Part shown: in pieces, positions 10,008-12,082 of the stretch
Layout: each line of letters starts with the position of its first letter
Position numbering within the stretch: position 1 is the first letter of the stretch
NCBI GenBank assembly: GCA_944390915.1
Contig: CALXRS010000005.1
Coordinates: forward strand, 7,663 to 71,662
Direction of reading: 5' to 3'
Length of the DNA stretch: 64,000 nucleotides
Source: an uncultured Alphaproteobacteria bacterium
GTDB lineage: Bacteria > Pseudomonadota > Alphaproteobacteria > RF32 > CAG-239
The notes under the pieces: model-generated
The model's input: the letters and a program-made list of their open reading frames with translations, nothing else
Told to the model about the DNA's origin: nothing
Database searches by the model: none
Made by a program: the position numbers and the translations under genes

Positions 10008-11210
10008 ATGAACATCCATGAATATCAGGCCAAGCGGATTTTAAGCGGCAACGGTATCAAAATCCCCAAGGGGAAAATTGCCTATACCGCCGACGAAGCC
10101 CGCCGCGCCGCCAAAGCCGTTACCGCCCGCGGACCGTGGATGCTCAAGGCGCAAATTCAGTCCGGCGCCCGCGGCAGCGGTCGTTTTTTGGAAGCCAAAG
10201 CCGGTTCCCGCAGCGGCATCAGGATGGTTTCGAGTTTAAGAGATTTGGGCACGGAGGCGGAAGCCATGCTTGGTTCCACGCTGGTAACCCGGCAAACGGG
10301 ACCGCGCGGGAAACAGGTCAGCCGCCTTTATGTGGAGGCCTACACCAAAGTCGGTTTCACCTTTTACGCCGGCATGGCCATCGATCGCGTGCAGGCGGCT
10401 GTTACCCTGTTGCTGGCCAACACCCGCGACGACGATATCAACACGATAGCGGAATCCGCCCCCGGTCAGATATTGCGCCTGCCGATTGATCTTGTGACCG
10501 GGCCGACCCATGCCCAGACGGGGCGGGCGGCGGAGTTTCTGAAATTGCAGCCGCGCAGCTACGACAGTTTTTACGCTTTTTTGCGCGGGCTTTTCAAAAC
10601 GTTTATGGCCAACGATGCCCTGATGATAGAAATCAACCCGGCGGGGGTTATGAAGAACGGCGATATTATAGCGCTTGACGCCAAAATATCTTTGGACGAC
10701 AAAGCGCTTTTCCGCCATCCGGAACACGAGCGCCTGAAAGACGATGACGAAACGCCGCCGCGCGAGCTGAAAGCGGCCAAATACGGATTTACCTACCACG
10801 AATTCGGCGGCAGCATAGGCTGCATTGTCAACGGCGAGGGGCTGGCCATGGCCATGACCGACATGGTGCGCGACAGCGGCAGCGGCGTTGCCTGCTGGCT
10901 GAACGTCAAAGGCGGGGTGGATCGGGACAAAGTTGCCGCCGGCATCAAAATCATTGTGACCAACCCCCGGGTCGAAGGTATAGTTATCAACATTTTGGGC
11001 GGTTTTGTCCGTTGCGATCTGATAGCCGACGGCATTATTGACGCGGCCGCGGAAGTCGGAATGAACATTCCTCTGGTCGTGCGTTTTGAGGGCACCAACC
11101 GCGACGAGGCGGAAAGCATTTTGCAGCGCGCGGGTTTGCCGCTGGTGATGGCGCACAATACGGACGACGCCGTCAACAAAATTTTGCAGGCGGTAAGGGA
11201 GGGCGAATAA
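10008..11210 (+). CDS. sucC: succinyl-CoA synthetase beta-subunit-like protein (ATP-grasp), divergent
   Basis: MNIHEYQAKRIL..., INPA, NGEGLAMAT, ILGGFVRCDLIADGII. The start is the internal ATG at 10008 within the longer track ORF. The stop overlaps the sucD-like ATG (TAATG). Confidence 0.85.
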   Translation: MNIHEYQAKRILSGNGIKIPKGKIAYTADEARRAAKAVTARGPWMLKAQIQSGARGSGRFLEAKAGSRSGIRMVSSLRDLGTEAEAMLGSTLVTRQTGPRGKQVSRLYVEAYTKVGFTFYAGMAIDRVQAAVTLLLANTRDDDINTIAESAPGQILRLPIDLVTGPTHAQTGRAAEFLKLQPRSYDSFYAFLRGLFKTFMANDALMIEINPAGVMKNGDIIALDAKISLDDKALFRHPEHERLKDDDETPPRELKAAKYGFTYHEFGGSIGCIVNGEGLAMAMTDMVRDSGSGVACWLNVKGGVDRDKVAAGIKIIVTNPRVEGIVINILGGFVRCDLIADGIIDAAAEVGMNIPLVVRFEGTNRDEAESILQRAGLPLVMAHNTDDAVNKILQAVREGE

Positions 11211-12082
11211 TGTCTGTTCTGGCGGGAAAAAATACCAAAGTTCTGGTGCAGGGCATGACCGGTACGCAGGCTTCTTTCCATGTTCGCCGGTCGCTTGATT
11301 ACGGTACGGATATCGTGGCCGGCGTTACCCCGGGCAAAGGCGGCACGACACACCTCGGGCTGCCGGTTTTTAACACCGTTAAAGAAGCTGTGGCGGCAAC
11401 CGATGCCACGGCGTCGCTGATATTCGTGCCGGCCAGGTCGGTTAAATCGGCGGTGGCCGAAGCGGCCGGCGCGGGGCTGGAACTGGTGGTTTGCATTTCC
11501 GACAAAATCCCCGTGCGCGATATGCTGGAAGTGCGCAACATCTTAAAAAACGGCAAAACCAGACTGATAGGCCCGAACACGCCGGGGCTGATTACGCCGG
11601 GCGAAGCGCGGTTGGGAATTTTTCCGGAGAATATTCATACGCCCGGACAGGTGGGCGTGGTTTCCCGTTCGTCGACCCTGACCTACGAGGCGGTGCTGGA
11701 AACGCGGCGCGCCGGGCTCGGTCAGTCCACCGTTATCGGTTTGGGCGACGATCTTGTCATCGGCATGAATTTTGTGGATGTTTTGTCCGAATTTATGAAT
11801 GACGACAATACCAAAGCGGTGGTTATGATAGGGCAGATGGGCGGCAATTTTGAAGAACTTTGCGCCGAATGGTATGCCGCGTCGCCGGTCAAAAAGCCGG
11901 TGGTTTGCTTTGTGGCGGGCAATTCGCAGGCCTTCAGCGCCACCGTCGGCTATGCCGGGGACATTATCACCCGCGGTCGGATAACGGCCGAAGACAAAAA
12001 GAAAAAACTGGCGGCGGCCGGGATAATCGTTGTCGAACAGGTCAACCGTATCCACGAAGAATTGCAAAAACTGCGACTTTGA
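11210..12082 (+). CDS. sucD: succinyl-CoA synthetase alpha-subunit-like protein lacking the canonical phosphohistidine
   Basis: [14 protein letters not shown]...[24 protein letters not shown]...SRSSTLTYE is collinear with SucD. The GHAGA motif reads GYAGD, with TAT at 11951-11953. Confidence 0.85.
   Translation: [290 protein letters not shown]

Follow-up and report, generated by a model that had tools for sequence, protein, structure and literature searches.

In succinyl-coenzyme A synthetase (SCS; coenzyme A, CoA), a glycine-rich loop carries a His that takes up a phosphoryl group at the ATP-grasp site of beta, and the loop then swings about 30 Angstrom to site I, where the phosphoryl group lies between the N-termini of two 'power helices', one per subunit. 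The glycines of this mobile phosphohistidine loop are Gly241, Gly245, Gly248, Gly253, Gly254 and Gly256, and Gly154 of the alpha subunit is the tip of the power helix that holds the phosphoryl group. Glu208 of alpha positions the His at site I, as Fraser et al. reportedly found in 2002. The GGI322 loop of beta lines the carboxylate site, and Lys42 and Glu97 are the residues of the CoA site that bind the 3'-phosphate. Citryl-CoA synthetase, ATP-citrate lyase (ACLY) and malate-CoA ligase keep the catalytic His and the G-H-A-G motif. The arrangement of two power helices at site I has been described for the superfamily, in which the helix tips bind phosphate or sulfate and five loops define the site (PMC11494057). 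Here we analysed 64,000 nucleotides of DNA from an uncultured alphaproteobacterium (assembly GCA_944390915.1, contig CALXRS010000005.1, positions 7,663 to 71,662 of the forward strand; the window), which encode a SucC-like and a SucD-like protein, the latter with a Tyr where SCS has its phosphohistidine. We are highly confident that this Tyr-type pair is not a canonical phosphohistidine ligase and is not decaying. It is probably a repurposed alpha/beta heteromer and not the tricarboxylic acid (TCA) cycle enzyme of its database annotation, because its genes always adjoin sufE, a gene of iron-sulfur cluster assembly.

For the alpha subunit, 212 full-length Tyr-type proteins (the clade) were compared with 77 canonical SucD proteins, and for the beta subunit 118 partners were compared with 73 canonical SucC proteins. 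Residue positions are given in E. coli SCS numbering, and the Tyr at site 246 corresponds to Tyr248 of the window protein. The alpha gene and its altered positions are the following.

11210..12082, + strand: SucD-like alpha subunit without the phosphohistidine, 290 residues, identified by Pfam, NCBIfam, E. coli alignment and an AlphaFold model
11951..11953, + strand: Tyr codon TAT at the phosphohistidine position His246, on which HMMER and MAFFT agree (MGHAGA reads VGYAGD)
11579..11581, + strand: Thr at Cys123 (GPNTPG), Thr in 212/212 clade members
11672..11674, + strand: Ser at Gly154 (SRSSTLTYE), the tip of the alpha power helix, Ser in 212/212 against Gly in 77/77 canonical proteins
11747..11749, + strand: Asp at Gly179 (GIGGDP reads GLGDDL), Asp in 212/212 against Gly in 77/77 canonical proteins
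11834..11836, + strand: Gln at Glu208 (GQMGG), the partner of the phosphohistidine at site I, a position relaxed in the clade
11960..11962, + strand: Asp at Ala249, Asp in 208/212 and Glu in the rest, Ala being invariant in canonical proteins
11972..11974 and 11981..11983, + strand: losses of hinge glycines, Arg at Gly253 and Ile at Gly256, both Gly being invariant in canonical proteins

The open reading frame (ORF) starts with ATG and has a GGAGG Shine-Dalgarno sequence 5' of the start. Its product has the Pfam architecture of a CoA_binding domain (PF02629, Rossmann, 98 bits) followed by a Ligase_CoA domain (PF00549, flavodoxin-like, 60 bits). The original prediction had called it collinear with SucD, and this holds over the full length, since E. 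coli SucD (PDB 2nu8/1jkj) was aligned end to end with 52% identity (E about 1e-89). The AlphaFold model has a mean pLDDT (predicted local distance difference test score) of 89.6 and reached template modelling (TM) scores of 0.92-0.94 in Foldseek against E. coli SCS alpha chains, and the SCS alpha fold is predicted to be kept. The best structural match to the model was chain B of PDB 9a6e, entitled 'integrative model of GATB-SUCD by crosslinking MS', and the matches also included 7jfp/7jkr, in which the loop has swung. This entry is a reported association of canonical SucD with an unrelated enzyme, and SucD can have partners outside SCS. The curated SucD models were passed only marginally (TIGR01019, 362.8 bits at a cut-off of 353.2; NF004230, 362.4 bits at a cut-off of 336), and because they were passed, Tyr-type proteins bear the name 'succinate--CoA ligase subunit alpha' in public records.

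The TAT codon at 11951-11953 was aligned to His246 by both methods, as had been predicted, and the window protein has no His anywhere at positions 236-262. No orthologue with a His at this position was found among the relatives. The predicted changes of GIGGDP to GLGDDL, which includes a replacement of Pro181 by Leu, and of GEIGG to GQMGG were also recovered. The change of GPNCPG to GPNTPG is present as well; however, it is not diagnostic on its own because Thr123 occurs in ordinary His-type enzymes (e.g. P0268, P0280). The Gly154 region, which had been quoted as unchanged, carries a Ser. What the original prediction listed was thus correct in its changes but lacked Gly154Ser, Ala249Asp, the changes in the beta subunit and the sufE/comF neighbourhood described below.

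The substitutions extend to the parts of alpha that carry the phospho-relay. At position 208 the clade has Gln in 131 proteins, Lys in 24, Ala in 20, Arg in 10, Gly in 9, Asp in 7, Thr in 6 and Ser in 5, and the Glu208 position is thus free to vary. Gly241, Gly253 and Gly256 are invariant in the canonical proteins, whereas in the clade position 241 is variable, 253 is Arg, His, Lys or Asn, and 256 is Ile or Val. The loop arm 236-243 is variable in the clade. From these residues we infer that the mobility of the phosphohistidine loop has been lost in the Tyr-type alpha subunits. Two PROSITE-type SucD signatures (S-[KR]-S-G-[GT]...G-G-D and G-x2-A-x(4,7)-[RQT]-[LIVMF]-G-H-[AS]-[GH]) were run as regular expressions. 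Neither matched any of the 212 clade members, and both matched all 77 canonical proteins. Every element of the phosphohistidine relay is lost according to the alignments: His246 is replaced, Glu208 is no longer constrained, and the swinging loop has no hinge glycines at 241, 253 and 256. The earlier view that canonical chemistry is probably impossible was strengthened by the freedom at Glu208, the loss of hinge glycines, the failure of the signatures and the co-variation of the beta subunit. In the Rossmann domain of alpha, Gly14, Thr16, Gly17, Gln19, Val72, Pro73, Ala74, Pro100 and Asn122 are invariant in the clade.

The Tyr could in principle stem from a fault in sequencing or assembly, or from a lesion that one strain has suffered in an otherwise normal sucD, as the codons CAT and TAT differ by one base; nothing beyond this a priori possibility speaks for it. 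In the assembly collection, 85 index blocks contain a protein identical to that of the window, and several samples are represented among the contigs that were read. The best 120 database relatives, with 99% to 64% identity, all carry G-Y-A-G-D, the stretch [15 protein letters not shown] and GLGDD. A search seeded with the most distant representative of the clusters at 50% identity returned 93 more proteins, all with Tyr, in which the sub-motif reads G-Y-A-S-D. All 212 full-length relatives have Tyr at 246, whereas all 77 canonical proteins have His, and Tyr is present in every relative from 99% to 48% identity; two deeper relatives have Phe and Leu. The Tyr codon of 10 other genomes is either TAT or TAC, and a metagenome scan added 16 Tyr-type loci, several of them titled 'human gut metagenome'. 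The Tyr does not stand alone: Thr123, Ser154, Glu163, Val174, Asp179 and Tyr246 are invariant differences between the 212 members and the 77 canonical proteins, Ala20 is a near-invariant one, and position 249 is Asp in 98% of the clade and Glu in the remainder. Besides the Tyr, alpha has seven or more fixed differences and beta has ten or more. The clade comprises more than 200 protein clusters at 90% identity, and in a neighbour-joining tree it is monophyletic in 100/100 bootstraps with a stem of 0.21 substitutions per site. An error or lesion, which the original prediction had already thought unlikely, is refuted by this clade from many independent assemblies, and we give it next to no probability.

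Among conspecific strains, the Tyr-type sucD genes differ at 2-8 synonymous and 0 non-synonymous sites and the sucC genes at 4-13 synonymous and 0-2 non-synonymous sites. The Tyr-type family arose once and is under purifying selection. Its members are confined to metagenome-assembled genomes (MAGs) of uncultured Alphaproteobacteria, several of them from human-gut metagenomes. Among the MAGs with Tyr-type genes are CALXTE01, CANPYJ01, CALXZK01, CALXVV01 and GCA_017445475.1/JAFSUB01. Four other SucD-like representatives of 50% clusters also lack the His, P0297 (ISYAGT, with Glu208 kept), P0376 (SDYTGS), P0327 (FSGD) and P0332 (MGNIGA), and fall outside the Tyr-type clade in the tree. These may be independent losses of the His, or fragments or errors, since each is one short contig.

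The beta partner is encoded directly upstream of alpha, and its features are the following.

10008..11210, + strand: SucC-like beta subunit, 400 residues, with Pfam ATP-grasp_2 and Ligase_CoA domains; GGAGG 8 nucleotides before the ATG
10173..10202, + strand: 10-residue insertion GSGRFLEAKA in the glycine-rich nucleotide-phosphate loop, after Arg54, in 118/118 partners against 0/73 canonical proteins
10836..10838, + strand: Glu at Ala266; the clade has Asp in 98, Glu in 12, Ser in 6 and Asn in 1, and Ala is invariant in the 73 canonical proteins
10893..10895, + strand: Cys at Asn285, Cys in 118/118, Asn being invariant in the 73 canonical proteins
10902..10904, + strand: Asn at Asp288, Asn in 118/118, Asp being invariant in the 73 canonical proteins
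10908..10910, + strand: Lys at Gly290, Lys or Arg in 118/118, Gly being invariant in the 73 canonical proteins
11004..11006, + strand: Phe at Ile322 (GGI reads GGF), Phe in 118/118 against Ile in 73/73 canonical proteins

The window beta was aligned to E. coli SucC with 40.5% identity (E=1e-82). It passed NF001913 with 383.3 bits (cut-off 370) and stayed below the cut-off of TIGR01016 (339 against 375.6 bits). The pair resembles SucCD of E. coli (ADP-forming, PDB 1SCU/2SCU/2NU8) in its adjacent beta-then-alpha genes with a stop/start overlap, here TAATG, in its domain architecture and in the alpha fold. Other shared features are the ATP-grasp core, the Rossmann GxTGxQ and, on beta, both Asn264 and the GG in the carboxylate loop. 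Lys46, Glu99, Glu197, Asn199 and Asp213, the Mg and nucleotide residues of the ATP-grasp domain, are invariant in 118/118 partners, and Asn264 and Gly320-321 of the succinate site are kept. The ratio of ATP-grasp to C-terminal domain divergence is 1.29 in the partners and 1.40 in canonical SucC. Simple decay of the pair is excluded because changes within species are mostly synonymous and the core residues of the ATP-grasp domain are invariant. The ribosome-binding sites, which are strong, and the predicted SCS alpha fold likewise speak for a pair that still functions.

The differences from SucCD lie elsewhere. The Tyr-type alpha has no phosphohistidine, an unconstrained position 208 and no hinge glycines, and both power-helix tips are substituted together with their neighbouring loops. 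On the beta side there is the 10-residue insertion, with the pattern G-x-F-[LA]-E-x-x-A in which Gly, Phe, Glu and Ala are conserved, and which is also carried by the divergent loci L092, L093, L107, L110 and L114. The phosphate loop H-A-G-G-R-G-K-A-G-G is altered in the partners by Ala51Ser and Gly53Ala at residues that are invariant in the 73 canonical proteins, and the equally invariant Glu107 is replaced by Ile, Thr, Val or Asn. Of the five loops that make up site I in the superfamily, four have changed in the Tyr-type pair. A new polar set has been fixed around the former phosphate pocket, with Ser154, Asp179, Tyr246 and Asp/Glu249 from alpha and with Cys285, Asn288, Lys/Arg290, Phe322 and usually Asp/Glu266 from beta. 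The pair is least SCS-like in the relay, where SCS is most defined, and is otherwise SCS-like; it should for this reason not be filed as a succinate-CoA ligase, even though it passes curated models.

Among the loci of the metagenome scan, two deeper relatives do not have Tyr at site 246. The alpha subunit of L109 (597-1463) has Phe in D-F-A-S-D and that of L114 (4001-4867) has Leu in S-L-A-S-E. Both keep [15 protein letters not shown], GLGDD, an acid at 249 and the hallmarks of beta, and both keep the synteny in the order sufS-sufT-sufE-sucC-sucD-comF. Since these relatives keep the other hallmarks and their gene neighbours, the hydroxyl of the Tyr is not universally needed, and a phosphotyrosine carrier is argued against as the mechanism of the family. 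The exchange is more in keeping with packing as the task of this residue, aromatic or hydrophobic, in a loop that would now stay in site I.

These two sequences bear on the possibility that the pair is still a succinyl-CoA (acyl-CoA) synthetase, with Tyr246 as a phosphotyrosine carrier or with a relay-free route such as the diffusion of succinyl phosphate between the sites. Such an enzyme would account for the Tyr in 212/212 clade members, for an ATP-grasp core that is intact including Glu197 of beta and no more relaxed than in real SCS, and for the retained Asn264, Gly320-321, Rossmann motif and 52% identity to E. coli SucD; the new Asp residues could act as a general acid or bind Mg2+. However, bulky residues replace the hinge glycines that are needed for the swing of about 30 Angstrom, and the helix-dipole phosphate pocket has gained a Ser along with carboxylates, and these should make the pocket unfavourable for a phosphoryl group. 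With Phe and Leu standing in for Tyr in two syntenic relatives, we regard an unconventional ligase as improbable. We know of no phosphotyrosine relay in the SCS superfamily, and none was found in the literature searched.

The pair lies in a compact gene unit, whose other parts in the window are the following.

9575..9979, + strand: sufE-like gene, first of the unit, of the family of sulfur acceptors in cysteine desulfuration, with a Pfam SufE domain and the active-site motif SGCQSQVW
12085..12804, + strand: comF/gntX-family gene, last of the unit, with Pfam DZR_2 and Pribosyltran domains (double zinc ribbon and phosphoribosyltransferase-like)
12821..12847, + strand: predicted terminator-like hairpin that closes the unit, with an 11-bp stem and a T-rich tail

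In NCBIfam, the sufE-like product scored 138 bits with SufE and 129 bits with CsdE, each just below the cut-off, and the product of the comF/gntX-family gene scored 126 bits with TIGR00201 (ComF) and 120 bits with GntX, also below the cut-off. In the window, sufE is separated from sucC by 28 nucleotides, sucC and sucD overlap by 1 nucleotide, and a gap of 2 nucleotides follows before comF. Across the loci the gaps are 6-30 nucleotides or the genes overlap by 1-4 nucleotides, with 4-nucleotide overlaps in several genomes, and a terminator follows comF only. The sufE gene is directly upstream in 30/30 loci that have upstream DNA (16/16 of the first set, 13/13 of the metagenome set, and L114), and comF is downstream in 33/34 loci (15/16 of the first set, 16/16 of the metagenome set, L109 and L114). 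Neither gene was found near any of 138 (76 + 62) His-type sucCD loci within the fetched flanks of 4 or 10 kb. The genes sufS-sufT (FeS_assembly_P) lie 5' of sufE in L085, L088, L089, L090, L092, L093 and L114, sometimes with unrelated genes in between. The association with sufE and comF persists to about 47% alpha identity, and all remaining flanking genes differ between the genome contexts that were read. Unlike sucCD, the Tyr-type genes never have TCA genes as neighbours, and sufE always precedes them. The ComF-family gene yhgH of E. coli K-12 adjoins the iron-sulfur (Fe-S) carrier gene nfuA, and therefore a comF-type neighbour is associated with Fe-S genes in a distant lineage too.

The protein P0126 (544 residues, 10 member sequences), which has Pfam matches to both SufE and ATP-grasp, was considered as a SufE-SucC fusion, which would be Rosetta-stone evidence, and rejected. 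About 90 SufE residues into the protein, a frameshift read-through takes it into an alternative frame that is open upstream of sucC. This sucC frame is open for about 140 nucleotides upstream and overlaps the 3' end of sufE, as in the window ORF 9864-11210. Upstream of sufE, an Rfam search detected no riboswitch or regulatory RNA, the only hit in the window being a tRNA, and a comparison of upstream regions revealed no shared operator beyond closely related strains.

The gene order also bears on whether the pair is an inert pseudoenzyme that serves as a structural or regulatory scaffold only, with the sufE/comF neighbourhood as a historical accident. In favour of this are the missing catalytic His, the relaxed Glu208 position and the variable loop arm, and all members come from one class-level lineage in which shared ancestry could explain some of the synteny. 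On the other hand, alpha and beta both carry many newly fixed polar residues, which speaks for selection of a new site and not for mere loss, and the Mg and nucleotide residues of the ATP-grasp domain, which would be expected to drift in an inert protein, are invariant. The overlapping or near-abutting four-gene core has persisted to about 47% identity while its surroundings were rearranged. We consider an inert scaffold rather unlikely.

A further alternative is a new enzyme, unrelated to SUF, with relay-free CoA-thioester chemistry at site I, for instance a thioesterase, CoA-transferase or acyl-transferase with an acid-base site of the Ser/Tyr/Lys/Asn type. The residues Ser154, Tyr246, Asp179 and Asp249 of alpha together with Lys290, Asn288 and Cys285 of beta do resemble a catalytic constellation, and the glycine motif of the CoA domain and the loops of the carboxylate site are kept. 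Such an enzyme would leave the invariant ATP-grasp core and the exclusive association with sufE unexplained, in two relatives Phe or Leu can take the place of the Tyr, and no neighbouring genes hint at an acyl-CoA pathway. We think this explanation doubtful.

The reading we favour is that of an SCS-derived, nucleotide-binding heteromer that is not a succinate-CoA ligase and that works with SufE as an accessory factor or a new enzyme. As a composite we hold it tentatively, at a little less than an even chance. The joint work with SufE is suggested by the tightly packed four-gene unit, which survives genome rearrangement across the family. In such a complex the former swinging loop would be fixed in site I, where an aromatic or hydrophobic residue at 246 and the new carboxylate and lysine contacts would fill the anion pocket. 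The new carboxylates and the lysine of beta would substitute for the interactions of the phosphoryl group, and the CoA site would receive no phosphoryl group from the ATP site. A nucleotide would still be bound by the complex, and probably a CoA-like ligand too. Together with SufE, and perhaps with the ComF/GntX-like protein, it would act in sulfur or Fe-S trafficking, either as an ATP- and CoA-responsive accessory factor or as a new enzyme.

Several observations weigh against this proposal. The AlphaFold model of the alpha monomer is silent on the immobility of the loop because residues 239-256 have low confidence (pLDDT <50). Position 266 of beta is not always acidic, with Asp or Glu in 110/118 partners and Ser, Asn or Gly in some. 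At the CoA site, position 42 is Lys in only 141/212 clade members and Glu97 is replaced by Asp, Tyr, Ala or Asn, and since both residues are only partly conserved the ligand may be something other than CoA. The constraint on the ATP-grasp domain is as strong as that in real SCS, which points to a continuing ATP-dependent chemistry whose acceptor is not named by our proposal. The link to SUF is drawn from gene order, and this order could have been inherited within one class-level lineage. Finally, an unconventional ligase would become more likely if the pair were the only SCS-like enzyme of its host and succinyl-CoA were used. No second sucC or sucD was found within the 64-kb window. The best 80 loci of a scan of genome contigs included four Tyr-type MAGs, and no second copy from them was among these loci. 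No TCA-cycle gene was found among the scanned ORFs of the window, about 10 called ORFs not having been run against any family library.

Compared with other members of the superfamily, the window alpha is far closer to SucD than to citryl-CoA synthetase, ACLY or malate-CoA ligase, with which the pair shares the superfamily and the two-site architecture. The matches of the pair to these enzymes were weak (6hxq, E=5e-40; ACLY, about 1e-14; malate-CoA ligase beta, 337 bits at a cut-off of 604), and their cut-offs were failed. Precedents for a non-ligase use of the superfamily are the NDP-forming acyl-CoA-synthetase-like domain of the Pat/PatZ-type acetyltransferases and the FdrA-like proteins. The domain of Pat is one that we take to be without a catalytic His. 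Matches to these proteins were again weak (9isq/9it0, 'protein acetyltransferase', E about 7e-5; FdrA, 24 bits). They are single-chain, distant and fused domains, whereas the Tyr-type pair keeps a two-subunit SCS architecture close to SucCD. As regards the SUF accessory genes (sufE, sufT), the pair sits between sufE and a gene of the ComF/GntX family, in many cases directly after sufS-sufT. SUF is not known to include any SCS-like, ATP-grasp or CoA-binding component. A 2026 review of Fe-S biogenesis contained none of the terms succinyl, coenzyme A and ATP-grasp. A His-to-Tyr SucD, an SCS-like SUF component or a metabolic description of these MAGs was not found in the literature searched, which is an absence of evidence.

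Divergently from sufE, the window encodes an M20 deacylase of the ArgE/DapE family and a GNAT acetyltransferase (7625-9464, - strand). The M20 peptidase at 7625-8743 was considered as DapE, which would imply a need for succinyl-CoA, and was rejected because its best DapE/ArgE matches are far below the cut-off (139 against 381 bits). The same M20/GNAT pair is found at this spot in L090; other genomes have there a GATase, the genes lysC-dapA-asd-dapB, or a GNAT gene with an M15 peptidase. An Ldh-family gene in L089 was considered as the stranded mdh of an mdh-sucCDAB cluster and was found to be an L-lactate dehydrogenase instead. At 2456-7468 (- strand) lies an ORF of 1670 residues without a Pfam match, consisting mostly of acidic short tandem repeats (TQEPV, EQTQEQTGA, AQDFMAEREAA). 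At this position, conspecific strains have a Cas9-Cas1-Cas2 locus (L082) or other genes (L083, L084). Because the strains differ here, the region is a strain-variable island beside the conserved M20/GNAT-sufE block.

Elsewhere in the window are a rubredoxin gene (12857-13144, - strand), a flavin reductase gene (12987-13505, - strand) and a nitroreductase gene (16997-17593), and at 50115-54699 (+ strand) genes with VWA, VWA and TPR, and BatD domains that resemble the Bat aerotolerance operon of anaerobes. An L-lactate dehydrogenase and an ADP-dependent sugar kinase are among the genes of the window and related loci. The Bat-like, rubredoxin, flavin reductase and nitroreductase genes suggest an oxygen-sensitive life in the gut. 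With the lactate dehydrogenase and the sugar kinase, they are traits of a fermentative, oxygen-wary lifestyle. ARAGORN called a 97-nucleotide tRNA-Ser(GGA) at 47556-47652 (+ strand), whereas the tRNA-Val at 45494-45566 was the only one that Rfam gave at the gathering threshold. At its 5' end, the long ORF 47524-48909 overlaps with the putative tRNA-Ser, and translation of this ORF probably begins at a more downstream site. At 31650-33236 (+ strand) a protein of 528 residues dependent on flavin adenine dinucleotide (DUF8436 and FAD-depend_C, no NCBIfam match) is encoded next to ferritin, transketolase and fructose-bisphosphate aldolase genes.

For annotation, the finding matters since Tyr-type proteins pass curated models of both subunits, SucD and SucC, and public records call them 'succinate--CoA ligase'. 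Because the models accept them, metabolic reconstructions would credit common gut Alphaproteobacteria with a TCA or succinyl-CoA step, very probably wrongly. For enzymology, a textbook enzyme with a swinging phosphohistidine loop has been rebuilt naturally, in a coordinated way on both subunits and with the ATP site kept, and the Tyr-type pair thus offers a clean case in which to study the repurposing of multi-site enzymes. For Fe-S biology, a new accessory role in the trafficking of sulfur or Fe-S is suggested by the exclusive, tightly packed association with sufE, and the neighbour of the comF/gntX family may take part in it. For SUF, the field has yet to settle the iron donor and the metabolic control. 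In a more speculative version, to which we give a low probability, the Tyr-type SucCD would be an unrecognised SUF component of host-associated Alphaproteobacteria, an SCS-derived machine that binds ATP and a CoA-like ligand and whose former phosphate pocket, changed from an anion hole to a site with many carboxylates, Tyr, Lys and Cys, could gate the flow of persulfide through SufE or handle a cation (iron) or CoA-linked sulfur. If this were true, Fe-S assembly would be coupled to the energy and acyl-CoA state of the cell.

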